In this document: positions 25-23,416 of the stretch, one piece after another
Layout of the letters: every line of letters begins with the position of its first letter
Numbering within the stretch: the stretch's first letter is position 1
DNA from: Candidatus Saccharimonadales bacterium
GTDB lineage: Bacteria > Patescibacteriota > Saccharimonadia > Saccharimonadales > JACQNP01
Direction: 5' to 3'
DNA: 64,000 nt
Assembly: GCA_041742395.1 (NCBI GenBank)
Contig: JBGSIS010000010.1
Location: 724-64,723 of the forward strand
Position numbers and translations under genes: made by a program
The notes under the pieces: model-generated
What the model was told of the DNA's origin: nothing
The model's input: the letters and a program-made list of their open reading frames with translations, nothing else
The model's database searches: none

Positions 25-2118
25 GTGAATTCAGACGTAGGATTTATAATAGTATTATATTCTATCGGTTTGAGCATCATGATGCTGATAAGTATTGGTT
101 TGGCAATAGGATACGTTACGGACTTAACCAGTTTGAATATAGCGGTAATAACAAATATCTTTGTCGTGACTATGTGCTGGATAACAATAAAGCACGGCAA
201 TAGTAGACACTTAAATTTAAGAATATTACGAAGACAAAATTTTGATATTATGACGATTTTTCATATTGTTTTGCTTGTATTGATACCGTTATTCACAGTA
301 TTTGGCGCGATTCGATTAAATAACTACGGAAGCGAGCACATATCTTTGGTAGCGATACTTTTGATGATCATTAGTGCAATATCGGCATTGAGACTTAGTT
401 ATATAAAAAACAAAAATACTGCATGGGTATTTCCGGTGACTATATTTATTATTTCAATTTCGCTTTTATTTATGACATCGTTAAGAAGTAACTTAACACC
501 TGGTCATGACATAGTTCAGGAATTGAGAGTAGCAAATGCAACTATTATGGATAGCAAGTGGAGTCCAGGCAATTCTATCGAAGATGCTTACAATGCTTGT
601 CTAAGTATTTCTCTACTTCCAGGAATATTACATGTAGCTACAGGCGTTTCAACAATTCTAATATTTAAGGTAGTATTCCAGATTATATTCGCCGGAGCTG
701 TGGTCGGTATATATTATTTTCTGAAAAAATTTAATAAGAATAATTTGGCATTTCTTTCTACTATTCTATTTATCAGTATTCCGACGTTTTTTATTGATCT
801 ACCTATGATTAATAGACAAGAGATTGCGCTGTTCTATTTTATATTATTGCTAATTGCTCTCTTTGATAAAGGTCAAAGACTAATATTAAAAAATATACTT
901 GTCTTGAACTTTGCTATAGGGATAGTCATATCTCACTACTCAACTACGTATATTGCGGTGGCAACTCTATCACTAGCTTTTATAATCAGTAGGCTCTTTG
1001 TCATACTAAAAATATTCAAAAATACATCTATAGATAGATCATCGATAGTCAATCTTCCATTAATATGTATCATGCTCCTATTTTCTATATTGTGGTATGG
1101 ACAAATCACTCAATCAAATGAAAATATCCAAAAGTTTATAGGGTCTTCAGTTGTAAATATAAAATCAGCATTGAAAATTAGTGATAATAACGAAAATAGT
1201 TCTATTAGTGGATTTAATAATATAAGTTCGCCAGAAGCCTTCGATCTGTATAACGAAAGATTAATTACCAAAAGTCCACCTGATGCACTTATTAAAAATA
1301 AAGCTGTTGCACTAGTGGATAACAGCATAGGATTTCAGGCTGCACAATATCAGCCCATTAACGTTAACCAGGGATTAGTCAGTAATATTAGTAAAATAAT
1401 AAATGTCCAGATATTCATGATAAAAATTTTCATAGTAGTTGGTGTCATATATCTTTTTATTAGGAGTATAATTAAATCCGAAAATATAGATTTTCTAGCT
1501 TACGTTTTAGCGGCTTTCTTAATACTGGCTATAACTGTAATTTTCCCAGCACTTAATTCAAATTATGGTTCGACTAGAGTCTACCAGCAATCTTTGATTT
1601 TACTTGCGCTGCCCGCGGTAGTCGCTATGAACTATCTTTCGAGCTTAATTTTAAAGAAGAATAGCATCATCGGGCCAGCGCTGTTTGTATTGTTATACTT
1701 TTCTCTAATGACTGGGTTTATAACCCAGATTACGGGTGGTTTTCAAGCTCAGATTAACTTAAACAACACAGGTGTGTATTTTGATAAATACTATGCACAC
1801 AAATCGGAGCAAATTGCGGGATATTGGATATCAGGAGTTGACTATTCGGGAGATACGATTCGCGTTAATGCCGACCCATCTACCACAACTAGATTACAAA
1901 ATTATTCTACGCTTCCACTCTCATCTTTCGATAATGACTTAGCTCCACCACTTATAAACAAAAATTCGTACGTATTCTTCGGTTATACAAATAGTGTAAA
2001 AAATATTGCTCTTACGTACTATAAGGGTAAACTCTTAATATACTCTCTTCCTGTTGAGTTTTATGAAAATAATAAAAATTTTATCTATAGTAATGGCGAA
2101 TCTAGGTTCTATAAATGA
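25..2118 (+). CDS. Large polytopic membrane protein, putative GT-C-like glycosyltransferase/polymerase of a surface-glycan locus
   Basis: 697-aa ORF with many (>10) hydrophobic helices followed by a soluble C-terminal part. Its TGA stop overlaps the ATG of the next GT4 gene (ATGA at 2115-2118). Function is assigned from architecture and context only. Confidence 0.5.
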   Translation: MNSDVGFIIVLYSIGLSIMMLISIGLAIGYVTDLTSLNIAVITNIFVVTMCWITIKHGNSRHLNLRILRRQNFDIMTIFHIVLLVLIPLFTVFGAIRLNNYGSEHISLVAILLMIISAISALRLSYIKNKNTAWVFPVTIFIISISLLFMTSLRSNLTPGHDIVQELRVANATIMDSKWSPGNSIEDAYNACLSISLLPGILHVATGVSTILIFKVVFQIIFAGAVVGIYYFLKKFNKNNLAFLSTILFISIPTFFIDLPMINRQEIALFYFILLLIALFDKGQRLILKNILVLNFAIGIVISHYSTTYIAVATLSLAFIISRLFVILKIFKNTSIDRSSIVNLPLICIMLLFSILWYGQITQSNENIQKFIGSSVVNIKSALKISDNNENSSISGFNNISSPEAFDLYNERLITKSPPDALIKNKAVALVDNSIGFQAAQYQPINVNQGLVSNISKIINVQIFMIKIFIVVGVIYLFIRSIIKSENIDFLAYVLAAFLILAITVIFPALNSNYGSTRVYQQSLILLALPAVVAMNYLSSLILKKNSIIGPALFVLLYFSLMTGFITQITGGFQAQINLNNTGVYFDKYYAHKSEQIAGYWISGVDYSGDTIRVNADPSTTTRLQNYSTLPLSSFDNDLAPPLINKNSYVFFGYTNSVKNIALTYYKGKLLIYSLPVEFYENNKNFIYSNGESRFYK

Positions 2119-3386
2119 GTAGAATAGTATTATTTTCGGATTTCTTCCCCCCCCATATACGGGGGGGAGCAGAAGTAAGTACAAGTTTACTCGCCAAGGA
2201 GCTTGTTAAATATCATCATGTTGAGGTGGTTACTTCTAAACTAAGTAGTTCAGACTGGAAATGGAATAGTATCACCATTCACCCTATACTTTCAAGGAAT
2301 GAAATTAAAAACAAAAATGCGTTTAGTCTATTGAAATATGCGATTGGTATCATTGTGCTACCAATATTAAATACTTACCGAATACATAAATTCTTAAAAT
2401 ATAATAAATTTGATGTTATTAATTTTGTTCCAACTTCTTATGTTAGCTTTCCAATGATTATTTTAGTGATCATTTTTAGTCGAAAAATTAGGATAGTAAT
2501 TGATGCTCGGGACTATACGTTAATATGCATATCTGATTTTAACAATAATAGTACGTGTAAGTTTGAACACAGACATAAATGTACGAGTCACATTAATTCT
2601 TTATATCAAAATGATAATCGTTTAATCGGACTACTACAACCCCTAATGGGACTTTACGAGGTTACAATATTCAATATATATAAAATCACACTTAGATTCA
2701 TCATTAATAATGATAGCAAGGTGCGTGTTGTAGCTCTATCGGAGTATGTAAAAAAACAACTTACAAATAATGGCTATAACAAAAATAAAATTGAAGTAAT
2801 TAATAATATTGCTGAAACTAATGATGAAAACAAACGCGACCAAAGACAGGCTTTGAGTTATGATTTCATATATGCAGGCAGACTCGAAAAGCCAAAAGGC
2901 ATATGGGATGCTATCCATGCTTTCGAACAATTAAATATGCCAAATATCAATTTTGCGATAGCTGGTGATGGTGCTGAGTATAATTTAATAAAAAAATATA
3001 TAAAACAGAACAATTTAGATAATATTATTCTTCTCGGTAAACTTCCTCCAGAAAATATAATTGATCTTTATAAAAAATCAAAATTTGTATTAGCCCCAGT
3101 AAAAAGACCAGAGCCCTTTGGTAGATTTATACAAGAAGCGTCTATAGCGCAAACACCTATAATTGCTCCAAACATTGGCGGTATTCCCGAAGCTTTATCT
3201 GATGGCATATCAGGATTTTTATATGATCCAACTCTATCTAAAGGTTTGCTAAAAACGCTTTCAAAAGCATCTAATATCGATGGATTAGAGTTAAGTAAGA
3301 TGCAGAATAAAATCGGTAAATTATCCGTTAAATATTCCCCTTCTTTTATATATGAAAAAAGAATCAAAACATACTTTGATATTTAA
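2115..3386 (+). CDS. Glycosyltransferase, GT4 (GT-B fold) family
   Basis: 423 aa. N-terminus FSDFFPPHIRGGAEV (typical GT4 PP..GG.E start). C-terminal EPFGRFIQEA...GGIPE nucleotide-sugar pocket-like motif. Contains the C8/G7 tracts at 2147-2167. Confidence 0.85.
   Translation: MSRIVLFSDFFPPHIRGGAEVSTSLLAKELVKYHHVEVVTSKLSSSDWKWNSITIHPILSRNEIKNKNAFSLLKYAIGIIVLPILNTYRIHKFLKYNKFDVINFVPTSYVSFPMIILVIIFSRKIRIVIDARDYTLICISDFNNNSTCKFEHRHKCTSHINSLYQNDNRLIGLLQPLMGLYEVTIFNIYKITLRFIINNDSKVRVVALSEYVKKQLTNNGYNKNKIEVINNIAETNDENKRDQRQALSYDFIYAGRLEKPKGIWDAIHAFEQLNMPNINFAIAGDGAEYNLIKKYIKQNNLDNIILLGKLPPENIIDLYKKSKFVLAPVKRPEPFGRFIQEASIAQTPIIAPNIGGIPEALSDGISGFLYDPTLSKGLLKTLSKASNIDGLELSKMQNKIGKLSVKYSPSFIYEKRIKTYFDI
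2147..2167 (+). repeat. Homopolymer pair C8 (2147-2154) - ATATAC - G7 (2161-2167), mutually complementary
   Basis: Read directly: TTC CCC CCC CAT ATA CGG GGG GGA encodes F-P-P-H-I-R-G-G at codons 11-18 of the GT4 gene. Confidence 0.95.
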
Positions 3387-3417: not shown

Positions 3418-4605
3418 TTATAGAGAATTAACAACAGAAGATAATTCATCTATCGTTTTGATGAGACTAAACTCTTTTTCAATAAATATTCTAGCGTTTT
3501 TTCCGTATTGTTTTCTAATCATAGGATTCTCGAATAAATATAACATAGCACTTTTTAATTGTTCTATATTACGCTCTTCCACCAAAATTCCTGTCTTGCC
3601 ATCAATCAAGCCTTCACTAATCCCACTATGTCTCGTTGAGATTATGGCTAATTCCAACGAAGACGCTTCTAGTAACACGACGGGGAGTCCTTCCATGTCT
3701 CCATTTTCAGCAGTAACACTAGGAACAACAAAAACAGTTGCTTCTCTCATTAGTTTAACTACTTCGGCAGTATCTAGGCCCCCGAGCAGTTTAATTTGGT
3801 CAGCAACACCTAAACTGTGTATAAGATTGGACAGTCTAGAATATAATGGACCACTACCGATAATATTATAATTTATAGATTTATCTCCTGAAAAACATTC
3901 CGCAAATGCTCTTATGGAATACTCGAAACCTTTTTTTTCTACCAACCTACCGACAGACAGATAACGTATACTATTAATTGGGTCTTTTACTGGTAGAAAA
4001 TAATCTGTATTTACACCCATTCGTAACACTATAATTTTATCTGATGGACAGCTTAGGCTAATTAATTTATTCTTCCAGAAATTTGATATGCATAGAATTT
4101 TATTTGACATTCTAAAGACATCTTCATATACATTACGAGGTTCTGATTTAAGAAATGCGGACATATCATGTCCATGAAATACTGATATGAGTTTAAACTG
4201 TTTCCCGAATCTTTTCATAGCCGCTGCCTTAATTGCGACCGGTCCGAAATTACAAATTAAAGTATCATTTTTATCTATTTTCAGATCCATCAAATAGGGT
4301 ATTTGAGTTAATAAATATAGATGGTACTTACTATTGAATTTGTAGCCAAACAATCTATTTACTTTTTTTAAATAGAATAATGAACATCTAGATAATGTCT
4401 TAAGGTTTTTTTTGGGGACTGGAGCCAATATAGTTTTTTTCTGAAGCTCTTTATTTTTGAAAATTGGTTGGGTTTGACCTTCGATATTCAGAGCTGTTGC
4501 AATAATATATACATCGTAGCCAAGATCGATTAGCCCAGATATTTGTTGTAAAATGAAAGTTTCAGATAATTTAGGAAAGTCTTCCGTTAAGAAATAAACT
4601 CTCAT
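3418..4605 (-). CDS. Glycosyltransferase, GT4 family (WcaL-like)
   Basis: 395 aa. Starts MRVYFLTEDFPKLSETF as in WcaL-type GT4 enzymes. C-terminal VPSVTAENGDMEGLPVVLLEA...TRHSGISE motif. Confidence 0.85.
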   Translation of the reverse strand: MRVYFLTEDFPKLSETFILQQISGLIDLGYDVYIIATALNIEGQTQPIFKNKELQKKTILAPVPKKNLKTLSRCSLFYLKKVNRLFGYKFNSKYHLYLLTQIPYLMDLKIDKNDTLICNFGPVAIKAAAMKRFGKQFKLISVFHGHDMSAFLKSEPRNVYEDVFRMSNKILCISNFWKNKLISLSCPSDKIIVLRMGVNTDYFLPVKDPINSIRYLSVGRLVEKKGFEYSIRAFAECFSGDKSINYNIIGSGPLYSRLSNLIHSLGVADQIKLLGGLDTAEVVKLMREATVFVVPSVTAENGDMEGLPVVLLEASSLELAIISTRHSGISEGLIDGKTGILVEERNIEQLKSAMLYLFENPMIRKQYGKNARIFIEKEFSLIKTIDELSSVVNSL

Positions 4606-5876
4606 TTTAATACCTTTTGGTGTAAATATTTAAAGTAAAATATAACTGCAATTCCTGCTCCAAGACTTTGACCAGATAACCAACCCAATGCAAGACTGGT
4701 GGGTTTGCCGTCATTCATAATATACACAAAAGACATTACTGCACCAAGAATAATAAAGTTCATTACCACCATTGCTTCTATGAGTTTTACGATATTCAGC
4801 ATCGTTCCAACTGTACTAATTATTGCGATAGGGATAGAAGATACAGCAAGTATAAGCATAGGAATGTATGACGTTTCCGAATATATTGAACCAAAAACAC
4901 TTAATATTGGTCGTCCTATAATTATTAATAATAATATGCTTGTAGTTAGTAGTGCTGTTATGAGTTTCAAAGATTTTGATTGGTGTTGTCTAATTTCTGT
5001 AATATTATGTGAACCTTCAGCAAAAAGCGATTTGTTTATTGATGACGGTATCATAAAAATGATTGAAGCAACTGAAAGCGCAATAAAGAAAAACGCTGAT
5101 TGAGTTGAACCAATCAAGCTAAATGCTACCAATGGGATAAACATGTTTGCCCCACTCGATGCAATGCCGGAAATATAGTTTCCAAATGAGTATTTACTAA
5201 CTCTTTTTAAAGACGTAAAATCAGGTTTTGCGAAGACTGATATATTATTTAACTTGAAGCCAGCAGTAGTTACTAATAAAGCTGCGATGTAACTACATGC
5301 GTAAACGAATATTATGGTGACAAAGTTGGAACTACTTAATGTGAATGGTAGTATGATCTTCGTAAGACCCATTAAGACGCTTTCAATAAGTATCCAGAAT
5401 GCGACCCTTTTCGCTATGAATACATTATCAGTAAATGCATTAACTGCAACAATATAAACTAAAACTACAAACGAAATAGCCCAAGCTGGGTTTGTCAGAG
5501 TATTTTTGAGATCTGGGGCGAAAAATTCAATACTATTTATAAAAATTGCACTTGTTAGGATTGTAGCCAACAGCACGGCTATGAGTGTCGCACTCATAAA
5601 TCGATTAGGACTTTTTAATTCTTTATAATAACGTATCACTGAATTATTTAGACCTAGTAGACTTAAGCTTGCAAGCAAAATAACGGAAGATATTAGAGCT
5701 GTAGCTGTACCAATTTGGTCGGGGCTAAACAATCTTGTATTAATTGCCCAAAATAAGAATCCCGCTGCCGATGCTATTAACATATTTAACAGGATATAAA
5801 TAGAATTTCTGTACAAACTATCATGCATAAAATGCCGATACATATTCATTGGTAATTGTTTATAGTCTTTTAGCAT
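4602..5876 (-). CDS. Polysaccharide/oligosaccharide flippase (MOP/Wzx-like)
   Basis: 424 aa, roughly 12 predicted TM helices with short loops. 4-nt overlap with the downstream GT4 gene. Confidence 0.7.
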   Translation of the reverse strand: MLKDYKQLPMNMYRHFMHDSLYRNSIYILLNMLIASAAGFLFWAINTRLFSPDQIGTATALISSVILLASLSLLGLNNSVIRYYKELKSPNRFMSATLIAVLLATILTSAIFINSIEFFAPDLKNTLTNPAWAISFVVLVYIVAVNAFTDNVFIAKRVAFWILIESVLMGLTKIILPFTLSSSNFVTIIFVYACSYIAALLVTTAGFKLNNISVFAKPDFTSLKRVSKYSFGNYISGIASSGANMFIPLVAFSLIGSTQSAFFFIALSVASIIFMIPSSINKSLFAEGSHNITEIRQHQSKSLKLITALLTTSILLLIIIGRPILSVFGSIYSETSYIPMLILAVSSIPIAIISTVGTMLNIVKLIEAMVVMNFIILGAVMSFVYIMNDGKPTSLALGWLSGQSLGAGIAVIFYFKYLHQKVLK

Positions 5877-5992: not shown

Positions 5993-7021
5993 TTGCTTAA
6001 GGTTACTGTTATTTACTGTATACCAAGTATAATTGATACTGTGAGCAATAAATCAAAAACTTTTATTCGCAGACTATTGGAGGTCTTTCTTTTTTTTATT
6101 TTGATATTCTATATAATTTACGCCTCTGCCCTGTTTGTACAATTACGACTATTTAAAATACTTATCAGCCCTACACCACAAGTTCTAATTATTAGCAGTT
6201 TAGTACTTATATTAATATCATTAATTTGGGCATTGATAGCCAAGAAACAAGGATTAATAAAAAAGTCTAGACTAGTGCCAGTTGTTATAATCGCTAGTCT
6301 TTTTGTTTCTTTGTTCTGCTTTATATTTACACTTACTATTCAATCAACTGCTCAAATTAGTGAAAGTGATGAAGTTATTAAGATCACATCTTATAACCGT
6401 CTTTATGAAACTGAAGATAATGATACTCCGGCTGCTTATATGAAAACCATTGATAGTGATATTATTAGCCTCCAAGAAGCGAGTACGCCAGATTATACGA
6501 AAACATTTGCTGAGAAAGTTGGTCATCAATATTATATACAAGCTCCAGATAACGATACTGGTCTAGTGAGCCGCTGGCCTATAACTGAGACAGAGGTACT
6601 TCAAAACGGTAGTAAACAAGTAATACGAGCGGAGATAGCAACTGATCAAGGTAATATAGCTGTCTACGCGGTTCATATAACTCCACCATTTACAGAAAGC
6701 ATGTACCGTGAAGGTTTAGTCGAATTAAAACAGCTAAGTGAATGGATTGCTGAAGACGAACTACCGGTTATTGTTGGTGGAGATTTGAATACTACAATCT
6801 ATTCACCTGAGATGCGAACTTTTACTAGTAGCCTAGCAAGTAAAATAAAACCAACTACTGAGCAGCGATGGCCACAGTGTAGCTGGTATGGACATGGTAG
6901 ACTGCAGTGCCTACGTATAGATTTTGTATTTATTCCTACGTCCAGTTTATTCGCAGATAGTGAAATATCTCCAGATTTAGGTTCGGATCACCGTGCTATT
7001 ACTGTTCAGTTTTCTCTTTAG
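5993..7021 (+). CDS. Membrane-anchored endonuclease/exonuclease/phosphatase (EEP) family protein
   Basis: 342 aa. N-terminal TM helices, then an EEP-like domain ending in GSDHRAITVQFSL (family-typical SDH motif). TTG start from the track; a downstream GTG (about 6043) is an alternative start. Confidence 0.7.
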   Translation: MLKVTVIYCIPSIIDTVSNKSKTFIRRLLEVFLFFILIFYIIYASALFVQLRLFKILISPTPQVLIISSLVLILISLIWALIAKKQGLIKKSRLVPVVIIASLFVSLFCFIFTLTIQSTAQISESDEVIKITSYNRLYETEDNDTPAAYMKTIDSDIISLQEASTPDYTKTFAEKVGHQYYIQAPDNDTGLVSRWPITETEVLQNGSKQVIRAEIATDQGNIAVYAVHITPPFTESMYREGLVELKQLSEWIAEDELPVIVGGDLNTTIYSPEMRTFTSSLASKIKPTTEQRWPQCSWYGHGRLQCLRIDFVFIPTSSLFADSEISPDLGSDHRAITVQFSL

Positions 7022-7958
7022 TCTTAGCGGTTTTTTTCGTTGGCGGAATTAACAGGTGCTTGTACATAATGAGCCAGAATGCTCCTGCATAAGCCATGAA
7101 GAATAGCATTCCCGCATAGGAGTGGAATAAACTAAATGCTAGTTCAATATTTATATGGTAGCCTGCAAGTATTAGTATGAATACTCTTAGGATATTTAGA
7201 AGAAACAGTATGAATAGGGCAACTGGGAAGACTAAAAAGAATCGTTTCTTGTTAAGCTTTTGCCAGTCTAAGATACCGACAATTGCATACAGTCCACTGA
7301 ATAGAGCTATGGATTCAATACCTGAGCAGTACTTCTCTACTGTCACTCCGAACTTATCTAGTATTATTGTAAGTTCCGGAACTATGGTTACTGTTAGTCC
7401 GGTTAAATCCAGTAGCCAGGCTACGGAATACAAAACTATAAATGCCAAGTATTTCCACAGACCATATACAACCAGTAGGAATAAGTAGAAAATCGCTGCT
7501 ATAACGAGAGATTGTACGATTTCTGTACGAAATTCAGTTATTAACTTCTTAATATTGTTAAATCCAAATACCGCAAGGGCTGCAAATACAATGCTTAGTA
7601 ACATCAACGCATGAGTAAGTATAATATTTGGTAATGTATTGTTGCCTTCAATGAGCTGACTGACCATTAACCAAGCGCTATGCGTTAATACCAGACTAAG
7701 TGCTAACCATCCTATTAAACGTCTGTCCCACTTCTCTAATTTAACATTGGTAATTTTGTTCCTTACAAGTAAAGCAAATGCTACTAAAGCGAACGCAAGG
7801 GCCTTACCTGCTCCGCCGTAAATAGCAAATCCATCACGATACAATATACCGTTAGATATTATTTTCGGGCCAATGATTCCGGTTATGAAAATACAAAGCA
7901 ATAAAAAAGCCACCAAACGAACCAATAAAGGCGGAATGGCGGCAATTTTTATTTTCAT
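6999..7958 (-). CDS. Exosortase/archaeosortase-family transmembrane transpeptidase
   Basis: 319 aa, about 8 TM helices. Contains EKYCSGIESIALF (Cys211, TGC codon on the minus strand at 7326-7328), then LLNILRVFILILAGYH (N..R motif plus His), i.e. the Cys/Arg/His signature of the EpsH/ArtA family. Adjacent to two genes with a matching C-terminal sorting signal. Confidence 0.75.
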   Translation of the reverse strand: MKIKIAAIPPLLVRLVAFLLLCIFITGIIGPKIISNGILYRDGFAIYGGAGKALAFALVAFALLVRNKITNVKLEKWDRRLIGWLALSLVLTHSAWLMVSQLIEGNNTLPNIILTHALMLLSIVFAALAVFGFNNIKKLITEFRTEIVQSLVIAAIFYLFLLVVYGLWKYLAFIVLYSVAWLLDLTGLTVTIVPELTIILDKFGVTVEKYCSGIESIALFSGLYAIVGILDWQKLNKKRFFLVFPVALFILFLLNILRVFILILAGYHINIELAFSLFHSYAGMLFFMAYAGAFWLIMYKHLLIPPTKKTAKTKEKTEQ

Positions 7959-7972
7959 TTGATCGAGAACTT

Positions 7973-8440
7973 CTAGCTTTGCATTTGACGTCGTCGTGAG
8001 TAAACTATTGCTCCACCTGCTACGGTTAGTGAGCTAATAGCGGCAATTGTACCAATTTCTGGAACTGCTACATCGATTACTGCAACGTTAAGCTTGGTAG
8101 TTATCTTAGAAGCATTACCAGTACTTGTACCACTCATACTATCTTTTACTGCAGATACAGTTATTTGTGATCCAAGCGGACAGTTTGAAGCTAGGAAGCT
8201 AACTAAATAAGAACCGTCTGTGTCTGAAGCAGTAGATTGAGTGTTGCTGTTACAAACAACTGAAACGCTTGCACCTGATACAGGAGTAGTGTTTTCGGTT
8301 ATATATCCGGTTACTTCAGTTCTGGCCGGATTTGGTACTGATTGTGCCGATGTTATCATCGGTATGGCTAGAATACTTAGCGCAAAAGCAAGTACTCCAG
8401 CTATTATAAGGCTTTTGAAATTACGAACAATGGTATACAT
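7973..8440 (-). CDS. Secreted CarboxypepD_reg-like protein with VPEIG-TM-RRR C-terminal sorting signal (putative exosortase cargo 1)
   Basis: 155 aa. N-terminal signal peptide ending ITSAQS. Body GASVSVVCNSNTQSTASDTDGSYLV. C-terminus AVPEIGTIAAISSLTVAGGAIVYSRRRQMQS (nt 7976-8065). SD AAAGGAG upstream. Confidence 0.7.
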   Translation of the reverse strand: MYTIVRNFKSLIIAGVLAFALSILAIPMITSAQSVPNPARTEVTGYITENTTPVSGASVSVVCNSNTQSTASDTDGSYLVSFLASNCPLGSQITVSAVKDSMSGTSTGNASKITTKLNVAVIDVAVPEIGTIAAISSLTVAGGAIVYSRRRQMQS

Positions 8441-8562
8441 ACTGAAACTCCTTTATTAAGCAACTCTTATTACTGATAGTACACCCATAGGTAAATATAT
8501 ACAACTTAGTAACTTGTATATTTAGAGTTTTGTGGTAAATATTACTTTTCTGGTATTTAGCT

Positions 8563-9039
8563 TTATGCTAAAGGAGAGTTCTGTAATGATTTTCGACGTA
8601 CGTAAACAATCGCTGCACCAGCAATTCCGACTGCTGCGATAGATGCAATTGTACCAATTTCAGGAACTGCCACATTAACAACTGCTACATTGAGTTTGGT
8701 GGTTACTTCATCTGCTGTTCCAGTACTTGTTCCACTCTTACCGTCTTTTGTTGAAGCTGTTACGCTAACTGATGATCCTTTAGGACATTTCTTGTCTTTG
8801 TATTCAACCCTGTATGTTCCAGAGTTGTTAGTTTTATCTGACTTGGACTTACCATTACAAACTACAGTAACTTTTGCATTTTTTATTGGGGTTCCGTTTT
8901 CTGAGATTACTCCAGTAACTTGTGTTTCACCTTTAGATTTTGCTGATACTGAAGCAGTAGGTATAGCAAGCAAGATAAATGCAATAACCATTAAAGCGAT
9001 AAGTAGTATTTTCTTAGTGTTTAGAACTTTAATTGTCAT
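8563..9039 (-). CDS. Secreted CarboxypepD_reg-like protein with VPEIG-TM-RRK C-terminal sorting signal (putative exosortase cargo 2, paralogue)
   Basis: 158 aa. Same architecture as 7973-8440. C-terminus AVPEIGTIASIAAVGIAGAAIVYVRRKSLQNSPLA (nt 8566-8667). The DNA of the signal is also conserved (gcaattgtaccaatttc[t/a]ggaactgc in both genes). Confidence 0.7.
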   Translation of the reverse strand: MTIKVLNTKKILLIALMVIAFILLAIPTASVSAKSKGETQVTGVISENGTPIKNAKVTVVCNGKSKSDKTNNSGTYRVEYKDKKCPKGSSVSVTASTKDGKSGTSTGTADEVTTKLNVAVVNVAVPEIGTIASIAAVGIAGAAIVYVRRKSLQNSPLA

Positions 9040-10634: not shown

Positions 10635-11711
10635 TTAAAGGCTATTGGCGATTTTAATAACTTGATTTGCACTTAATGACGATTGCCCATTTATTTCGTA
10701 CCAAACACCATCATCTATCCAGCTAGCACTATCGCCATCATAAATGTAGATAGTCTTACCCTTCTCTTGTAGTAACTGATAGCTTCGGCTATTAGTACTG
10801 ACATGATTAGATAAGAGTGCGTCACTATTCCACTCTGATTTCTTCTGAGTAATTACATAACTCCGGTCGTCAGAATTAGATCTATATTTAATAGTAACTT
10901 GGCCTACTTGGTATTCAATCGGGCCATTAAAACTGAAGCCACCTGCCTGGTAAGCGGGTACTGTGCCATTAATTCCAGCCCTAGTTGAAGCAACTTTCAT
11001 AGCCAAATTAGGTACATTATTGTAAGCGAAATATCCTCCAAGAAGTAATCCGGCAACTATAAACATACTTATATTCAAGAAACCTGGTTTCAGTTTCAGT
11101 TTTTTTGCAAGTTTATGGGTTCGGGGTGTCTTTTTATGTGTAGCGTTTTTATGGCTTTGCGAGTTGTTGATGGCGTTTTCTAGTACACTTGAGGTCTTTG
11201 GTCTGCTGCTTATAGTTTGTGATTCACTAGTCTTGCTGATGTTCCTTGGAGAGTCGTGTTTAGTTGCTGGTATTTCTTTAGGTGGAACGGAAATTGGTAA
11301 TGGAGAATATTTGGTGGTTTTTTCAGTTTTGCCAACTCCAAACCTACTTATTAAGGAACTTTTAGGTGCTGTTTTTGCTCTTTGCTCTCTACTTTGATTG
11401 ACTGGTGTAGTCTTTTTTATTTGAGGTCGGCTGTCTATTGGAGTTTTCTTTTCAGGTGTAGTGTGTGGCTTATTGACGATGCGCCTAACTAGAGTCTTGG
11501 ATTTATGAGCAGTTCGACTTATATTATGAGGCTGTCTTTTTATACTGCTCTTAAGGGGAGACGGTCTACTTACAAAACCATCTGTACCTGAAGTAGATGA
11601 GCTAGGTGTTTTTGGGGCTGATATTTTTGGCTTAGGTGAACTAAGAAGCTCCCCAGTTACTGCGTCGTATCTGTTACCGTTTAAAGTAATTACGTTTCTT
11701 CTATTTCCCAC
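10635..11711 (-). CDS. Hypothetical bitopic membrane protein with K/P/S/T-rich cytoplasmic N-terminus
   Basis: 358 aa. Long low-complexity basic region, one TM (MFIVAGLLLGGYFAY), about 140-aa extracytoplasmic C-terminal domain. No motif recognised. Confidence 0.5.
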   Translation of the reverse strand: MGNRRNVITLNGNRYDAVTGELLSSPKPKISAPKTPSSSTSGTDGFVSRPSPLKSSIKRQPHNISRTAHKSKTLVRRIVNKPHTTPEKKTPIDSRPQIKKTTPVNQSREQRAKTAPKSSLISRFGVGKTEKTTKYSPLPISVPPKEIPATKHDSPRNISKTSESQTISSRPKTSSVLENAINNSQSHKNATHKKTPRTHKLAKKLKLKPGFLNISMFIVAGLLLGGYFAYNNVPNLAMKVASTRAGINGTVPAYQAGGFSFNGPIEYQVGQVTIKYRSNSDDRSYVITQKKSEWNSDALLSNHVSTNSRSYQLLQEKGKTIYIYDGDSASWIDDGVWYEINGQSSLSANQVIKIANSL

Positions 11712-11818: not shown

Positions 11819-13297
11819 ATGGAGTATTTAGACCCTAAACAAAAACGCGCTCATGAGATAAAGCTATACATAGGATATGGTCTCATGGCGATATTGATAG
11901 TTATAGCAACCATTATTATGGCCTTCTTGTCATTTGGCTTTAACTATGATAGAAACAGTGGCTCAGTAGTTCAGAATGGCCTGTTGTTCGTCGATTCACA
12001 ACCAGAAAGTTCAAAAGTATTTGTTAATGATGTAGATAAAGGTCAGACTGACGTTAGATTAGTGGTACCCTCCGGAAAGTATAAGATTAGACTTGAGCGA
12101 GATGGCTATCGTCAATGGAGTAATGAAGTAGATATTACTGGTGGTGATATCGCTAGAATTGTCTACCCATTTCTGTTTCCTACTAATTTAGAGTCGGAAG
12201 AAGTCAGTTCTTTAACATCAAAACCGGTATATTCTTCGCAGAGCCCAGACAGAAACTGGCTGATTATTAAGTATGCCGATAAGCTTAATGAGTTTGTTGA
12301 ATTTAGTACTGTCGAAGAAGTTATTACGCCTAAGGTATTATCTCTTAGCCCTAGCATTATTAACCAAACAGGTAAAAACCATAATTTTAAAGAAATTGAA
12401 TGGTCGAGTGATAACCGTCACTCCTTAATAAGGCATGATTTTGATGGCGGATTTGAGTTTATTATTCTAGATAGACAGGACGTAACTAAGTCTTTCAATT
12501 TAACTACAAAGTATAAGAATGTAGTGGCTAAACAAATAAGACTACGAGACAAGAAGTTCGATAAATACTACATTTTAAATGACGCAAACGAGCTTTATTC
12601 CTCAGAGTTTAAAAAAGAAGATTTAACTAAAGTTGCCGAAACGGTTTTGGATTTTCATCCTCATGGTGCTGACATAGTTATGTACGTTTCTTCTATACCT
12701 AACGTTAAAGATAAAGTTATGGTCAAAATTGCCGAAAAAGAAAAGCAATATAATATGCATGAGTTGCCTACTGACAAGAAGTATCTTCTGGATCTAGCTG
12801 AGTTTGACGGTAGTTGGTATGTAGTTCTAGGCGCTTCAAGTGAGAAAAAGGTCTACATCTATATAGATCCGTTTAAAGAGCTTAAAGATAGCGACGAGAA
12901 CTTGCCAGGACCGCAGTCACTACTTACTTTGGACGAGCCGGTTGAATATCTGGCTTTTTCGGCAAATGCCCGTTTTATTTCGATTCAAAGTGGTTCAAAC
13001 TTTTCACTTTATGACGCTGAAAATGTTAAATATTTTAAATATAATATTGGATTAGAGTTACCTAGTGACAATAAAGCAAAATGGATGGACGGACACAGAT
13101 TTAATATTGTGAATAAAGACAAAGTTCATGTATTTGATTTTGATGGTACTAACAAACAAGAGTTAATGGCATCCTATACTGGTATTCTACCGTTTTTCGA
13201 TAGAGACTATAATGATGTATTTACCTTAAGTCCTTCTTTGAAGACTAAAGATAAATCTGCTCTGTTTTTAACTCCATTAAAAGAACAAACTAACTAA
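11819..13297 (+). CDS. PEGA-domain membrane-anchored protein
   Basis: 492 aa. N-terminal TM then FVDSQPESSKVFVNDVDKGQTDVRLVVPSGKYKIRLERDGYRQW (PEGA-like), followed by a large beta-rich domain. Confidence 0.65.
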   Translation: MEYLDPKQKRAHEIKLYIGYGLMAILIVIATIIMAFLSFGFNYDRNSGSVVQNGLLFVDSQPESSKVFVNDVDKGQTDVRLVVPSGKYKIRLERDGYRQWSNEVDITGGDIARIVYPFLFPTNLESEEVSSLTSKPVYSSQSPDRNWLIIKYADKLNEFVEFSTVEEVITPKVLSLSPSIINQTGKNHNFKEIEWSSDNRHSLIRHDFDGGFEFIILDRQDVTKSFNLTTKYKNVVAKQIRLRDKKFDKYYILNDANELYSSEFKKEDLTKVAETVLDFHPHGADIVMYVSSIPNVKDKVMVKIAEKEKQYNMHELPTDKKYLLDLAEFDGSWYVVLGASSEKKVYIYIDPFKELKDSDENLPGPQSLLTLDEPVEYLAFSANARFISIQSGSNFSLYDAENVKYFKYNIGLELPSDNKAKWMDGHRFNIVNKDKVHVFDFDGTNKQELMASYTGILPFFDRDYNDVFTLSPSLKTKDKSALFLTPLKEQTN

Positions 13298-13300
13298 GTT

Positions 13301-14479
13301 TTAATTAAATATACCAGTAATTCTTTGCCATAAACTCGGTGCGTTACTAGGTATGACGGCTACTTGATCAGAAGCATCAGTTTGATTGGCGGTACTGGCG
13401 ACATTAGTTGTCGGATCGGGAGAAATTTGCTCACCGGTTACTAGTAGTCTTCTGAGTGAGGTTCCAGGAGGGTCACAGGTAATTAAAGTCATAGTGGATT
13501 TTTCTGTTGAGGTTGTTAGTACTGAAACGTCTGAGGGATCCACCACTTTCTTACCAGTAACTCGATAAACGAATCTTTTACTGTCTTTATTGAGATAAAA
13601 AGTGTCACCCTCTTCAAGTTCATTAAGTAGTACGAAGGCAAATTTATACTTCCCTTTATTTAAAATATTGTTACTGGAATGTCCGAAGATTACTCCGTTA
13701 CCAATTTCTCCTGGAAGTGGGGTTGTAGCGTAATGAACTACCCCCTGTTCTAGGGATTTTTGAATATCGTCTTCTTTAATTGAGGGTTGGTCGTAAACTA
13801 CAGGAATTTCAACATTAATTTTAGGTATTATTATCTTTGGTTCAGGACCGACAGCCGCCGTTGCTGGATCAATAATTATTGGAGTGTTGCTGACTGACTT
13901 ACTAGGGCTAACAAAAGGTGCTATAAATCTTTCGTTAAAGAATCCAAATAAGAACAAGACAAGCATAAATGAGCCTAGTCCAAGACCGAAGCCTAATGAT
14001 TTAAGATGTTGTTTGTGAGTAGGTTTGGAGTTAACGTTCCTAATTATTTGTCTTTTTATTTCTTTAGGATTTTTCAGAGATTTAACTTTGTGGACGGGAG
14101 TATTCTTGGTGTGTTTAGGGGCGACGTTATCTTCAGTTTCTTTTGTCTTTTGTTTTGCTGAGCTGTATTCTGATTGGTCCATACGGTTGTGCTCTGCATA
14201 AAACTCTTGCCAGACTTGGTGTTTTTGATCATCAGGCAAACTAACATAATATTTATGCCATTCAGTTTGTATGTCGGCCAACGATTTTCCAGAAGTACTT
14301 AGTTCATGCATGAATTGTTGATGTTTACTTCTGTGGGTTCCAGCTACTTCAGCTTCTTTAGATTCTTCTTCTGCGTTTGGTTCTTTTTTGTACAGATCTT
14401 CAATTTTGTGACGTATTAAATTAGCTGCGTCATTATTTGACGAGTTATTGTCGTTTGGTAAAGGATCGATTGTTTTCAT
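13301..14479 (-). CDS. Sortase-family transpeptidase (class E-like), membrane anchored
   Basis: 392 aa. Disordered N-terminus, TM (LGLGSFMLVLFLFGFF), catalytic-domain motifs VIFGHSS (His) and TLITCDP (TLxTC Cys) plus a downstream Arg (SLRRLLV). Confidence 0.8.
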   Translation of the reverse strand: MKTIDPLPNDNNSSNNDAANLIRHKIEDLYKKEPNAEEESKEAEVAGTHRSKHQQFMHELSTSGKSLADIQTEWHKYYVSLPDDQKHQVWQEFYAEHNRMDQSEYSSAKQKTKETEDNVAPKHTKNTPVHKVKSLKNPKEIKRQIIRNVNSKPTHKQHLKSLGFGLGLGSFMLVLFLFGFFNERFIAPFVSPSKSVSNTPIIIDPATAAVGPEPKIIIPKINVEIPVVYDQPSIKEDDIQKSLEQGVVHYATTPLPGEIGNGVIFGHSSNNILNKGKYKFAFVLLNELEEGDTFYLNKDSKRFVYRVTGKKVVDPSDVSVLTTSTEKSTMTLITCDPPGTSLRRLLVTGEQISPDPTTNVASTANQTDASDQVAVIPSNAPSLWQRITGIFN

Positions 14480-17530: not shown

Positions 17531-18325
17531 TTACAAATCTATTTCTATACTTGTTGGGCAGTGGTCTGAACCCATTACTTCAGGGTGAATATCGGCATTC
17601 TTAATTTTATCTATGATTTGATCTGAAACCATAAAGTAATCTATCCGCCAACCAATATTTCTTGCCCGGGCGTTTGCCCAATGTGTCCACCAGGTATAAG
17701 CATCTTCTTTTTCGGGATAAAATTTTCTATATGAATCGACATAACCAGCGTCAATGAAATTCTGAAATCCCTTCCGTTCTTCATTAGTGAAGCCATGTTT
17801 TCCAACATTTGGTTTGGGGTTTGCTAAGTCAATTTCTTGATGTGCGACATTTAAGTCTCCGCAAAAGATTACCGGTTTAGTTTTTTGTAATTCTAGGCAG
17901 TAGTCTAAAAATGCTTTATCCCACAGATCGTGTCTAAGGCTTAATCTTGACAGGTCTCCCTTACTATTTGGTGTATACACAGAAACTAGGTAAAAATCTT
18001 CAAATTCTGCTGTAATTACACGACCTTCATTTGCGGGGTTGCCATAATCATCATTTTTGAAACGGTCATTAATATCTTGGGTAAATCCGTTGCTAACTTT
18101 AATTGGCTGTTTTTTAGTGAATATTGCTGTCCCACTATAGCCCTTTTTTTCAGCTGAGCTCCAAAATTCTTGATACTGAGGTAAATCTACTTCGGATTGG
18201 TTTTGTTGGGCCTTTGTTTCTTGTAGGCATATAATATCTGGATCATGTTTTTGTATGAAATCTTGGAAGGCATTTTTGTTCCACACTGCTCTAATTCCAT
18301 TAACATTCCACGAATAAATTCTCAT
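17531..18325 (-). CDS. xth: Exodeoxyribonuclease III
   Basis: 264 aa. Starts MRIYSWNVNGIRA, contains LQETK, ends GSDHCP. Confidence 0.92.
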   Translation of the reverse strand: MRIYSWNVNGIRAVWNKNAFQDFIQKHDPDIICLQETKAQQNQSEVDLPQYQEFWSSAEKKGYSGTAIFTKKQPIKVSNGFTQDINDRFKNDDYGNPANEGRVITAEFEDFYLVSVYTPNSKGDLSRLSLRHDLWDKAFLDYCLELQKTKPVIFCGDLNVAHQEIDLANPKPNVGKHGFTNEERKGFQNFIDAGYVDSYRKFYPEKEDAYTWWTHWANARARNIGWRIDYFMVSDQIIDKIKNADIHPEVMGSDHCPTSIEIDL

Positions 18326-19994: not shown

Positions 19995-20136
19995 ATTAAA
20001 TCCCTTCGATTTTACCTTCTACTTATTATAAGAAATATTTTCATAAATTTAAATGGTACAGTTAAAAAATGAATTTGGCCCAATCCAATAGTGGACAATA
20101 GATAAAAAAGTGGTGCATCAAGATATTTAAAAAAAG

Positions 20137-20165
20137 TTGACAAAACAACTAATATATGCTACTAT
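20137..20165 (+). promoter_or_regulatory. Sigma-70-like promoter of the island operon
   Basis: TTGACA (20137-20142), 17-nt spacer, TACTAT (20160-20165). Confidence 0.45.
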
Positions 20166-20220
20166 GTTGAAGGTTCCAAAAAACGGAACTCCCCTTATGA
20201 CAACTAAATAAGGGAGAATT

Positions 20221-20388
20221 ATGGAGAAACCCATAGTACATATCGAGCAACAGCTCGAGCATATCAAACAAGCAATAGACCAAGGACTGGACGACCAGTC
20301 CTTTTTTTATGCCTCGGAACAGCCTGACATAAAACAAAGAACGCTGCCCACAAAATTTATCATGCAACGAATGCTCAGGGTGGAATAA
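20221..20388 (+). CDS. Small ORF (55 aa) leading the island operon
   Basis: Below the ORF-track size cutoff. SD AAGGGAG lies 4 nt upstream of the ATG. Translates MEKPIVHIEQQLEHIKQAIDQGLDDQSFFYASEQPDIKQRTLPTKFIMQRMLRVE. The stop is 4 nt before the next ATG (20393). Confidence 0.35.
   Translation: MEKPIVHIEQQLEHIKQAIDQGLDDQSFFYASEQPDIKQRTLPTKFIMQRMLRVE
20284..20308 (+). terminator. Terminator-like hairpin inside the leader small ORF
   Basis: GGACTGG-ACGA-CCAGTCC followed by T7 (20302-20308). Confidence 0.4.
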
Positions 20389-20392
20389 AAGT

Positions 20393-20992
20393 ATGACAGA
20401 CACCTATAGAATAGCCCTAAGTGGCGGACCGTCGGGCGGAAAGTCTACGCTACAGCGAGCAGTCTCCGAACAGATAGCTGAAGCTTACTGCGCTCCGGAA
20501 GTTGCAACAATACTGCTAAGCGGAGGCTTCCCGGCCCCTACCGAACAGCATCCCTGGGAAGAATCCTGGCAACGAAACTTCCAACTAGCAGTAGCTGCCG
20601 GCCAGGTTGCACTGGAAAATATAACCAACCAACGAGCAGAACATGAAGGTAAACGCCTAATAATATACGATAGAGGTTTGCTCGACGGTGCTGCCTACCT
20701 ACCGGGAGGAATACCAGAGCTTGAGGAAATAACCGGCCAAGACGAGCATGCTATGCTAGGTAACTACGACTCAGTGCTACACCTTACCACTTCGGCGGCA
20801 CACTCAGCATACAACAAGCGAAGCAACCCGCACAGATTTGAAGTAGCGGCAGCAGCGCTAGAGCTCGACCAGCGAATCATGGCAGCCTGGGATAATCACC
20901 CAAATCGCATAGTACTGGACGAACCCGACAAAGTAGAGCGAGTGGCACAAGGCTTGAACATAGCTAGAGCTCTGTTAGAGGGAGAAGTATAA
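20393..20992 (+). CDS. P-loop NTPase/kinase (AAA_28 / NadR-C-like)
   Basis: 199 aa. Walker A SGGPSGGKST, Walker B-like LIIYDRGLLDG. Confidence 0.6.
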   Translation: MTDTYRIALSGGPSGGKSTLQRAVSEQIAEAYCAPEVATILLSGGFPAPTEQHPWEESWQRNFQLAVAAGQVALENITNQRAEHEGKRLIIYDRGLLDGAAYLPGGIPELEEITGQDEHAMLGNYDSVLHLTTSAAHSAYNKRSNPHRFEVAAAALELDQRIMAAWDNHPNRIVLDEPDKVERVAQGLNIARALLEGEV

Positions 20993-21769
20993 ATGAAAGA
21001 ACATCGCCTACTTCCACTGCCTAACGATGCAGATATAGAAGTCCTTAACGCTTCAGTTTCGGAGCCAGAACTGGGCACACGAGTAGTACTTAAGACCTGT
21101 AAAGTAAGCATACCTGAAACAGTCATACAGGAGGCTAAGACTGAACTGGTAGCTAGACAAAGCTTAAAGTATACACCTGGTCGGGAAAGCTCACCGGAAG
21201 ACTACCCAAAAACCAGCAGACTTGCACAGTGGCTAGCTGCAGCTGTCTTAGAACCGTCCCATAGTGACCTATCATTTATACGAGCTACAGATAAAAGAAA
21301 GCACATCTATGCAGATAATCTCCACTTTGACTCAAGATATGTTGGCTATAGTGAGCGTCGAAATGTACGAGGTACATTCTGGAGACCAAGCAATTCCGTT
21401 GAAATCTGGCGGCAAATTATAAACTTGAACGACCAGTCAAGACATCTTCAGATCATAAACACACCGATAAAGGATTTAGAAAGTAGAGGCTTGGATATCT
21501 ACCAAGAACGACCTGTTGGCAGAGAGATTATAGGATGCCAGAACCCAACAGATATTCCGATTAGCATGCTAACAACATCTATTCCAGAGTCAGAAACTCA
21601 AGTCTATACAATACCTGCCTACGACGGCGACAACTTACCAGTTTTAGGGCTCTGGTCAAGCCGAGTCCTACATGCTGGAATAACTGCCAAAGATGGCCAA
21701 CTTATGGCTGCGTCAGCCAAGTGGGTAAAGCCGGATAAAAGAGATGAAGGAGGATACTATGCCAAATAA
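20993..21769 (+). CDS. Hypothetical protein (possible HxD...H cupin/dioxygenase-like)
   Basis: 258 aa. The start abuts the previous stop (TAAATG). NLHFDSRY and distal RVLHAG could form a 2-His-1-carboxylate triad; this is speculative. Confidence 0.4.
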   Translation: MKEHRLLPLPNDADIEVLNASVSEPELGTRVVLKTCKVSIPETVIQEAKTELVARQSLKYTPGRESSPEDYPKTSRLAQWLAAAVLEPSHSDLSFIRATDKRKHIYADNLHFDSRYVGYSERRNVRGTFWRPSNSVEIWRQIINLNDQSRHLQIINTPIKDLESRGLDIYQERPVGREIIGCQNPTDIPISMLTTSIPESETQVYTIPAYDGDNLPVLGLWSSRVLHAGITAKDGQLMAASAKWVKPDKRDEGGYYAK

Positions 21770-22514
21770 TGAAAAGCTATTGAGCATCCTGACGCCCGTA
21801 CTAGCAAATGATGGAACTCGGGAATTGCTGCCAGAGACTATAGCATCAGTTGAGCAGCAAGCCCTACCATCTGGCTGGAACTTGGAGTGGATCATCATGG
21901 AGGACGGCAAGGAGCCTGTCCTCGAAGACTACCCATGGCCAGATGTTGTTCACTATCGAAAGATTGAAAAACAAGTTGGTGAGCCATCAGCAAGGACACT
22001 TGCACTATCGATGGCAATTGGCGAGGTCGTACTGGCCTTTGATGCCGATGACACATTACCACCAGAGTCTTTACAGAAAATCTGCACCGCTTTTGATGAT
22101 AATCCAAGTGCCAAATGGGTTGCTGGTCAGGAATCAACTCCACGTCATCCAACACCCTGGATAAGCCAGAAAGATTCAAAGGATAATATAGAGGCTGGTC
22201 TATGCCAACCAGAAACAATTTACCCATTCTGGAAACGAACCGGACAGTTCCCAGTCACCTTCCAGTGCTCATACAAGACAGATTCTCTCTGGGAATATGG
22301 TGGCTATCCGGCAATGCCCTACAGCGGTGACATAAACTTACTGTTCGCAGTATCGAGTGTAGAGCCTGGAGTGGTACTGCACGATACTATCCTGAACTAC
22401 CGCAGATGGCCTGGACAAATGACTGCACAGAAAGAGTACTTCGCCGTAAAAGATCTATCGCACCAACACGCTGAAAAGTGGGTCCAAGCTGTTACTAGAA
22501 AGAGCAATTCATGA
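21744..22514 (+). CDS. Glycosyltransferase family 2-like
   Basis: 256 aa. LSILTPVLANDG...SVEQQ start and FDADD (DxD) motif. Overlaps the upstream gene by 26 nt. Confidence 0.65.
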   Translation: MKEDTMPNNEKLLSILTPVLANDGTRELLPETIASVEQQALPSGWNLEWIIMEDGKEPVLEDYPWPDVVHYRKIEKQVGEPSARTLALSMAIGEVVLAFDADDTLPPESLQKICTAFDDNPSAKWVAGQESTPRHPTPWISQKDSKDNIEAGLCQPETIYPFWKRTGQFPVTFQCSYKTDSLWEYGGYPAMPYSGDINLLFAVSSVEPGVVLHDTILNYRRWPGQMTAQKEYFAVKDLSHQHAEKWVQAVTRKSNS

Positions 22515-23416
22515 AAACTGAAGTTATTCGAGAATATGCTAGCGAACACAACATTGATTTAGGAGTCCCAGAACCGATTATACGGCGAAGTGACCCGCTC
22601 GATACAGCAGCCGGTGCTCACATACCAGCTCAGGGAGACATAGAATTATTTGTTGACCATCAAAACAAAATTGTATACAAGGTTGGAACGGAAGATAGGC
22701 TACCAAAATATAAACAAGACTATCGGGCGTTGACAGTAGCCTACAACGCAAGCATCGCTGTGCCTAGACCGATTGCTGAACCAAGTGTACACGGTAAATA
22801 TCTTGTTTACGGCTCAGAATACATTTATCACGATCCTTACGGCTCACCTTCACCCGAAGCAACCGGCGAAACACTGGCAGCACTGCATGACATCAAAGTC
22901 GACTCATTTGAAATAGCAACCAGTAAGCTGGGAATGCTAGCCAGTTTCGTGCTTACTCAATGCGAAATATCTGAGCAAACACGAGAGTCTATAGAAGAAA
23001 GATGCTTGCCATGCATATCGGTAGTTACACATGATATGGAAAATAATAATAGCTTGATTCATGGTGATGTGCACCTCGGTAATGTTCTTCCAACCATACC
23101 TAGACCAACACTTATAGATTTTGAAGATTCCGGTAAGGGCTCGCCGCTATGGGACTTGGCTGTTCTTGTGCAATCTGCCAACAGATTTGGACTAGACCCT
23201 ACTTGGGTAGAAACATGTCTTCAATCTTGGCAACAAGCAAGTCACAAAGACTTGACGAAAGAAACACTAGGAGAGTACGTAGATTGGCGGTATTGGTATG
23301 GTGCCCTAAGTATGATTAAACGTACCCAACATGAACCTAACCTTCTGCCAGAATTACAGACAAGGCTCAAATGGGTACATATTCCCATAGACCAATCAAA
23401 ATGGACACGCTGTTAA
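22511..23416 (+). CDS. APH/choline-kinase-fold phosphotransferase
   Basis: 301 aa. LIHGDVHLGNVL (HGDxxxxN catalytic loop) and LIDFEDSG. ATGA overlap with the GT2 gene. Confidence 0.75.
   Translation: MKTEVIREYASEHNIDLGVPEPIIRRSDPLDTAAGAHIPAQGDIELFVDHQNKIVYKVGTEDRLPKYKQDYRALTVAYNASIAVPRPIAEPSVHGKYLVYGSEYIYHDPYGSPSPEATGETLAALHDIKVDSFEIATSKLGMLASFVLTQCEISEQTRESIEERCLPCISVVTHDMENNNSLIHGDVHLGNVLPTIPRPTLIDFEDSGKGSPLWDLAVLVQSANRFGLDPTWVETCLQSWQQASHKDLTKETLGEYVDWRYWYGALSMIKRTQHEPNLLPELQTRLKWVHIPIDQSKWTRC

Follow-up and report, generated by a model that had tools for sequence, protein, structure and literature searches.

A probable exosortase-type protein-sorting module of Saccharimonadales encoded beside surface-polysaccharide genes

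The locus and its enzyme

The stretch of DNA considered here, the whole of which is called the window, comprises 64,000 nucleotides of contig JBGSIS010000010.1 from a Candidatus Saccharimonadales bacterium, and our subject is a group of three of its genes that encode an exosortase/archaeosortase-family membrane protein and two small paralogous proteins, termed cargo, whose C-termini carry a tripartite sorting signal. The three open reading frames (ORFs), delimited in an earlier note made from the sequence of the window, are all present and all lie on the minus strand. That note had described the cargo genes as downstream of the enzyme gene, which is the wrong way round. In the direction of transcription they lie upstream, in the order cargo 1, cargo 2, enzyme, all head to tail, with 122 nt between the two cargo genes and 14 nt from the cargo 2 stop codon to the enzyme ATG. 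The cargo genes and the enzyme are probably made from one transcript. A sigma-70-like site some 40 nt before the ATG of cargo 1 was picked out by a consensus scan and is weak evidence for a promoter, as the number of promoter and terminator sites found by that scan across the region was not above chance. The genes, the promoter-like site and the three codons discussed below are as follows.

8563..9039 (-), cargo gene 1, 158 aa, with a signal peptide, a transthyretin-like beta-sandwich and a C-terminal sorting signal
7973..8440 (-), cargo gene 2, 155 aa, a paralogue of cargo 1
6999..7958 (-), exosortase/archaeosortase-family polytopic membrane protein, 319 aa
9080..9107 (-), promoter-like site TTAAAA-16-TATAAT
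7326..7328 (-), codon of Cys211, the predicted nucleophile, in the motif YCSGIES; invariant in 30 sequences
7185..7187 (-), codon of Arg258 in the motif NILRV; invariant
7122..7124 (-), codon of His279 in LFHSYAG; invariant

The 319-residue protein is a member of the exosortase/archaeosortase family, as had been proposed from its motifs. In hidden Markov model (HMM) scans it scores 64.2 bits against Pfam PF09721 (Exosortase_EpsH; cutoff 25.7) and 55.7 bits against the NCBIfam family signature TIGR04178 (cutoff 23). A total of 169 enzyme homologues were detected, and TIGR04178 is matched by each of the 30 relatives, at 45–79% identity, that make up the enzyme alignment. In this alignment Cys211, Arg258 and His279 are invariant and correspond to the putative Cys/Arg/His triad of the family (Haft 2023 preprint). 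Two elements of the signature first read from the protein, YCSGIES with Cys211 and NILRV, are therefore present and invariant. The third, a histidine in GYH, did not hold up: H268 is not conserved and is Tyr in most relatives, and the invariant histidine is H279.

The AlphaFold2 model of the enzyme (mean predicted local distance difference test, pLDDT, 86.2) consists almost entirely of long helices, with a short beta-hairpin at residues 191–206 directly before Cys211. It has the deeply membrane-embedded, polytopic character of a family with about eight transmembrane segments, the exact number of crossings being a deduction from the model. When the sequence is read against the helices of this model, the Lys/Arg counts per loop alternate as 3/1/6/0/3 ... 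4/0/7. This alternation suggests that the N- and C-termini are both cytoplasmic and that Cys, Arg and His would lie in the outer half of the membrane, near its outer face.

The cargo family and its C-terminal signal

The two cargo proteins are 47% identical (E = 1e-35), in agreement with their earlier description as paralogues. In the AlphaFold2 cargo model a signal-peptide helix (residues 8–24) is followed by strands at 38–121 and a C-terminal helix at 128–153; the strands form a beta-sandwich with a pLDDT of about 85–91, and PEIG falls within a short low-confidence linker. The body of these proteins had been called CarboxypepD_reg-like. The Pfam model of that name stays below its cutoff of 32.3 on both of them (21–23 bits), but the predicted fold supports the description, and Foldseek searches with the sandwich match transthyretin-like and carboxypeptidase regulatory domains and, more weakly, Gram-positive pilin domains. 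Two cysteines, C61 and C85, do not vary in an alignment of 34 cargo sequences, consistent with a disulfide outside the cytoplasm.

An exhaustive search of 1.84 billion representatives with a cargo profile returned 988 proteins at E <= 1e-10. Among the best 150 matches, full-length proteins of 140–160 aa number more than 100, and there are a few two-domain versions of 230–260 aa; word-indexed searches gave few homologues, 3 with a single sequence and 11 with a profile. Long multi-repeat matches to the cargo profile were set aside as generic CarboxypepD_reg-like repeats with other anchors (PGF-CTERM, LPXTG-like) that stand outside this system. Two long CarboxypepD_reg-like multi-repeat proteins, P0171 and P0279, end in DSPGFG or DQPGFG followed by a helix and are thus PGF-CTERM-like, which suggests that the same kind of sandwich domain is displayed elsewhere via archaeosortase-type signals. 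In databases the enzyme goes by no more than "exosortase/archaeosortase family protein", and the cargo is listed as "hypothetical protein".

The sorting signals of the two cargo proteins are encoded at the ends of their genes.

8566..8667 (-), cargo 1 sorting signal: VPEIG at residues 125–129, hydrophobic helix, RRK and a short tail
7976..8065 (-), cargo 2 sorting signal: VPEIG at residues 126–130, hydrophobic helix, RRR and QMQS

Both C-termini read NVAV(I/V)(D/N)VAVPEIGTIA, then a hydrophobic helix, then RR(R/K), and the near-identical succession of motif, helix and basic cluster first noticed in these two proteins recurs across their homologues. In the 34-sequence alignment, whose mean identity is 39%, P126 and G129 are invariant and E127 is nearly so. 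A conserved strand, (T)KLN[VI]A[IV]VNV, precedes the motif, and the motif itself directly abuts a variable hydrophobic helix and then an invariant Arg, with no spacer. Motif, helix and basic cluster without a spacer is the arrangement of PEP-CTERM and PGF-CTERM signals (Haft 2023 preprint). A broader set of 122 short cargo representatives, pairwise at most 50% identical, contains 104 proteins with [VLI]PE[FLMYI]G followed by a helix and basic residues, and in most of the others Gly is replaced by Ser. Only 6 of the 104 share with the window an Ile at the variable position. Given the rarity of Ile and the Ser variants, the signal is better written as PE-hydrophobic-[G/S] than as VPEIG, and VPEIG is the local spelling of a family-wide [VLI]-P-E-[FLMYI]-[G/S] motif. 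Two cargo-like genes directly upstream of the enzyme, L003:3323-3742 and L010:3511-3948, have a degenerate motif (GVPRASL or VPVFG for PE-x-G) and could be natural variants bearing on motif tolerance.

An HMM built from the tail alone was run against all ORFs of the window and of the loci that contain the enzyme, 2,836 ORFs in about 300 kb. It gave 37 matches at 35–74 bits, every one a module-adjacent cargo gene (62.3 bits for cargo 1, 57.8 for cargo 2), and the next ORF scored 10.5 bits. Within the window the tail is carried by the two cargo genes only. Because proline and glycine are invariant at a mean identity of 39%, and because the tail HMM separates so cleanly, this C-terminus is far from what chance would produce.

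Distribution and the surface-polysaccharide neighbourhood

A scan of one genome per species yielded 23 loci with the enzyme. Almost all of them bear the name Candidatus Saccharibacteria, Saccharimonadales or Saccharimonadia; the few soil metagenome-assembled genomes among the loci with other labels are likely mis-binned. The placement in the candidate phyla radiation (CPR) that had been suggested from the sequence is upheld, as the named relatives and the loci belong with few exceptions to Saccharibacteria, Saccharimonadales or Patescibacteria. Among Saccharibacteria from soil and other environmental sources the module is conserved. Each of the 23 loci has a cargo gene whose end directly precedes the enzyme, with one to three copies per locus; several loci have two or three cargo copies, or an extra copy just downstream of the enzyme. 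The pairing is also kept in a 75%-identical relative (L024), despite a different upstream flank. A literature search returned, within the library covered, no paper that joins Saccharibacteria or Patescibacteria with an exosortase or archaeosortase and none for VPEID-CTERM, and the transposon-sequencing paper on Southlakia does not mention sortases.

In the window the 3' end of the enzyme gene faces a cluster of genes for surface-polysaccharide synthesis and one gene of another kind.

25-2118 (+), DUF2206 membrane protein (Pfam)
2115-3386 (+), GT4 glycosyltransferase (Pfam)
3418-4605 (-), GT4 glycosyltransferase (Pfam)
4602..5876 (-), Wzx-like polysaccharide flippase (PF01943, 27.5 bits, just below the cutoff of 28.2)
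5993..7021 (+), membrane-anchored endonuclease/exonuclease/phosphatase-family gene, convergent with the enzyme gene (PF03372, 56.9 bits)

Related genes recur within 4 kb of the enzyme in the 23 loci. A polysaccharide pyruvyl transferase is found in 12 of them, a Wzx-like flippase in 10 by BLAST (and in L005 by Pfam), a GT4 glycosyltransferase in 8 and a DUF2206 membrane protein in 5; at least one member of the set Wzx, GT4, GT2, DUF2206 and pyruvyl transferase is present in 19 of the 23. A pectate-lyase-like beta-helix protein, which is not counted in that total, accompanies the enzyme in 10 loci. The representative at L001:6231-8255 (-), about 675 aa and with homologues in 10 loci, follows the pyruvyl transferase gene on the other strand, and may be a glycan-modifying or glycan-degrading surface enzyme of the same cluster. 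The pyruvyl transferase gene usually overlaps the enzyme stop codon, by a few bases. At L012:3983-6193 (+) the two are joined in a single ORF of 736 aa, with an exosortase domain at 54–296 and a pyruvyl transferase domain at 332–665 (Pfam), and this may be a true fusion of the genes or may stem from a frameshift in the assembly. The C-terminus of the L012 enzyme would thereby be attached to a transferase of cytoplasmic type, in agreement with a cytoplasmic C-terminus.

The closely related locus L024 contains the same block as the window, namely two cargo genes, the enzyme, the Exo_endo_phos gene, Wzx, DUF2206 and GT4. Its upstream flank consists of type IV secretion-like genes where the window has GluRS, and this difference indicates that the linkage is to the polysaccharide genes. 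That flank, L024:1-4823, encodes DUF87/TraG-like ATPases, a Peptidase_M23 protein and a DUF8128 protein. The polysaccharide context parallels the known association of exosortases with extracellular polysaccharide (EPS) loci (PMC1569441). The module had been regarded as minimal and self-contained; the cargo–enzyme pair is indeed its invariant core, but it is joined to a polysaccharide cluster in the window, in L024 and in 19 of the 23 loci. The Exo_endo_phos gene, which encodes N-terminal membrane segments and overlaps the 3' end of the enzyme gene by 23 nt, is a different matter: its convergent arrangement is common to the closest relatives L024 and L025 only, and it is absent from all 23 genome loci. 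A second gene of this family lies in the window at 17531-18325 (-).

Proposed mechanism, alternatives and relation to known systems

We propose, at a probability of about 0.7, that the cargo genes and the enzyme constitute a dedicated exosortase-type protein-sorting system of Saccharimonadales (Saccharibacteria, CPR). The small cargo proteins would be exported through Sec by means of their N-terminal signal peptides, fold outside the cell into a single disulfide-containing beta-sandwich, and be held temporarily in the membrane by the C-terminal helix with the RRR cluster inside. The enzyme would then recognise [VLI]-P-E-hydrophobic-[G/S] at the outer end of the cargo helix and cleave at the motif by way of Cys211, helped by Arg258 and His279, with all three residues in the outer half of the membrane. 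Removal of the helix would leave a new cargo C-terminus that could be passed to an acceptor.

The identity of the acceptor is a matter on which we hold several views at different strengths. Saccharibacteria are regarded as monoderm, the archaeal-type lipid anchoring favoured in the earlier note would be a reasonable solution for an envelope without an outer membrane, and we tentatively place a membrane lipid or a lipid-linked glycan first, at somewhat short of even odds. The repeated polysaccharide linkage and the possible pyruvyl transferase fusion make a glycan or lipid-linked glycan acceptor a serious alternative, and a cell-surface glycopolymer made by the neighbouring cluster is a possible though doubtful acceptor. 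Transfer to water, which would amount to simple release, appears unlikely. A Cys/Arg/His set like that of sortases is common to the family, and even for ArtA it is not settled that transfer takes place in one step (Haft 2023 preprint). A bolder version of the proposal, which we think rather improbable, is that the enzyme is a transpeptidase that forms a covalent bond between the sandwich protein and a pyruvylated glycopolymer of the cell surface, or the lipid-linked precursor of that polymer, produced by the Wzx/glycosyltransferase/pyruvyl-transferase cluster. If so, the product would be a protein-decorated glycan coat and a major, lineage-wide surface structure of environmental Saccharibacteria, possibly involved in attachment to host bacteria. 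No earlier case of protein-to-polysaccharide anchoring by an exosortase would precede it, and it would also be the first exosortase system shown to function in a CPR bacterium with a monoderm envelope.

Several points weigh against a dedicated sorting system. Cleavage by this subfamily is a prediction by analogy with studied relatives, and the predicted topology assumes an odd number of membrane crossings, counted as one, for the helical segment 144–185. Searches of the PDB with the enzyme profile (by sequence) and with the enzyme model (by fold) found no similar solved structure, and NCBIfam scans of the whole cargo and of the isolated tails placed no curated CTERM model above its cutoff. PEP-CTERM systems have been described only in outer-membrane bacteria (PMC1569441), whereas Saccharibacteria are regarded as monoderm. 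The signal occurs on a single protein family and could be a conserved feature of that family, not a portable sorting tag; the substrate count comes from about 300 kb and from representatives of the cargo family, and further substrates may be encoded elsewhere.

The strongest competing explanation, still an improbable one in our estimate, is that the helix and RRR cluster are the permanent anchor of a small type I surface protein and that the enzyme serves polysaccharide export or assembly, or substrates encoded elsewhere. Confinement of the tail to one protein family and the failure of every curated CTERM model to pass its cutoff are consistent with such an anchor, as is the tight linkage of the enzyme to Wzx, glycosyltransferase and pyruvyl transferase genes, which in one locus extends to a single ORF. 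However, a plain anchor needs no invariant P-E-x-G at the membrane boundary while the helix beside it drifts, and the Cys/Arg/His triad that stays invariant is that of a protease or transpeptidase. Moreover, cargo and enzyme are adjacent in 23 of 23 loci, whereas the polysaccharide genes vary in kind and in 4 loci are missing within 4 kb.

Slightly less probable again is the explanation that the enzyme acts as a plain endopeptidase, and that the released sandwich is either retained at the surface by non-covalent binding, for example to pyruvylated glycan, or lost by diffusion. In its favour, many transthyretin-like sandwiches bind carbohydrate or have a structural role, 12 of the 23 loci have a pyruvyl transferase near the enzyme, and one-step transpeptidation is in doubt even for ArtA, as noted above (Haft 2023 preprint). 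Set against this, ArtA is the only relative studied experimentally and it couples cleavage with lipid attachment, and the sortase-like catalytic set suggests an acyl-enzyme intermediate that is handed to a nucleophile.

That the classical sortase of the window processes both cargo proteins and anchors them to peptidoglycan was considered and rejected as very improbable: a real sortase gene lies about 4 kb away and LPXTG-type models weakly match the hydrophobic tail, below threshold, but the cargo tails have no LPXTG-like motif, their motif abuts the helix without the spacer typical of sortase signals (Haft 2023 preprint), and none of the 23 loci has a sortase homologue within 4 kb of the module.

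13301..14479 (-), classical sortase, 392 aa (Pfam Sortase 90.1 bits, domain 216–350), with a TLITC motif and a long N-terminal extension

The sortase had itself been correctly recognised in the earlier note, and no LPXTG-type substrate was found for it in the window. Its neighbours, at 11819-13297 (+) and 10635-11711 (-), are a PEGA-domain protein and a DUF4367 protein. Among the remaining features of the window are large predicted surface or envelope proteins, namely one of 845 aa with fn3/Big_7 domains at 40948-43485 (-), one of 827 aa with DUF7483 at 30511-32994 (-) and a 912-aa RND/SecDF-like transporter (ACR_tran) at 37397-40135 (-). Positions 20001-24000 have a GC content of 0.44–0.45, compared with about 0.36 elsewhere, include genes for an AAA_28 protein and an APH-type phosphotransferase, and may be a horizontally acquired island.

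Exosortases are widespread yet little studied experimentally. The proposed sorting system is very simple, with one enzyme, one adjacent family of small substrates and presumably no outer membrane to cross, and this simplicity would make it well suited to the question of which acceptor an exosortase uses for its substrate. It also recurs throughout a large uncultivated lineage and has a genetic link to a surface-polysaccharide cluster. The cargo is likely an abundant surface protein of Saccharibacteria, organisms for whose epibiotic life the cell surface is central. Curated models could be made both for the enzyme subfamily and for the PE-hydrophobic-G tail.

The relation of the module to described systems can be judged from the scores of their curated models, none of which, among the NCBIfam enzyme subfamilies, reaches its cutoff for the window enzyme. 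The best is TIGR04162 (XrtE), at 80.7 bits against a cutoff of 150; it is also the best subfamily model for all 30 relatives, with a best E of 2.7e-23 that is likewise sub-threshold. Only positions 100–300 of the 516 in TIGR04162 align, and the protease half is therefore absent from the 319-aa enzyme. Assignment to XrtE was rejected, as two of its defining features are lacking. The likeness to the XrtE/VPEID-CTERM pair consists of the best-scoring model, a shared V-P-E-I and similarly few substrates, but VPEID ends in D and the motif of the module in G or S. The VPEID-CTERM model TIGR04161 has no match on the window tails, and one homologue reaches 14.1 bits (cutoff 33). The suggestion that VPEIG stands nearest to VPEID and PEFG is accordingly right for the enzyme, whose best model is XrtE, but is not borne out on the tails by the VPEID-CTERM model; a resemblance to PEFG-CTERM or PEF-CTERM signals, also proposed, found no model match for either.

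The PEP-CTERM/XrtA system has in common with the module the enzyme family, the triad, a tripartite signal with a P-E core abutting the helix, and an association with polysaccharide loci. PEP_CTERM (TIGR02595) aligns over its full length on both tails and is a near miss, at 13.4 bits for cargo 1 and 13.0 for cargo 2 with a cutoff of 16. Apart from PEP_CTERM and VPEID-CTERM, the models that match isolated tails do so on the generic hydrophobic stretch. On the enzyme side the scores are 29.7 bits against XrtA (TIGR03109; cutoff 208) and 37.3 against the EpsH subfamily (TIGR02602; cutoff 105.55). PEP-CTERM genomes have an outer membrane and many unrelated substrates, with a median of 8 (PMC1569441), whereas in the roughly 300 kb covered here the module has one cargo family in one to three adjacent copies.

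With the archaeal systems ArtA (PGF-CTERM) and ArtC (PEF-CTERM) the module would share an envelope without an outer membrane, and PEF resembles the consensus PE[F/L/M/Y]G. To our knowledge, bacteria lack the prenyl lipid that is the acceptor in archaea. Within the family, experiments have proved both cleavage and lipid attachment for ArtA alone, and the PGF-CTERM helix is removed in the process (Haft 2023 preprint). Archaeosortase models gave no match to the window enzyme at E <= 1. Weak ArtC matches occur in 18 of the 30 relatives, some of which also match ArtA or ArtE weakly, and other weaker matches of the relatives go to XrtA, XrtX and XrtV. Bacterial models score higher throughout, so that by HMM score the enzyme is nearer to bacterial exosortases than to archaeosortases. 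The Gram-positive XrtG model (TIGR03110) has no match to the window enzyme and matches one of the 30 relatives at E = 5e-4.

Sortase/LPXTG systems resemble the module in Sec export, in a transient C-terminal helix and in a Cys/Arg/His enzyme. They differ in that the enzyme fold is unrelated and in that the cargo tails have neither an LPXTG motif nor a spacer before the helix; TIGR01167 (LPXTG) gives no match on the window tails, and the 15.5–16.3 bits that it gives on some relatives' tails come from the hydrophobic part only. In sum, we read the enzyme as a new subfamily, as yet without a curated model, in a system whose kind is known but whose lineage is unusual.

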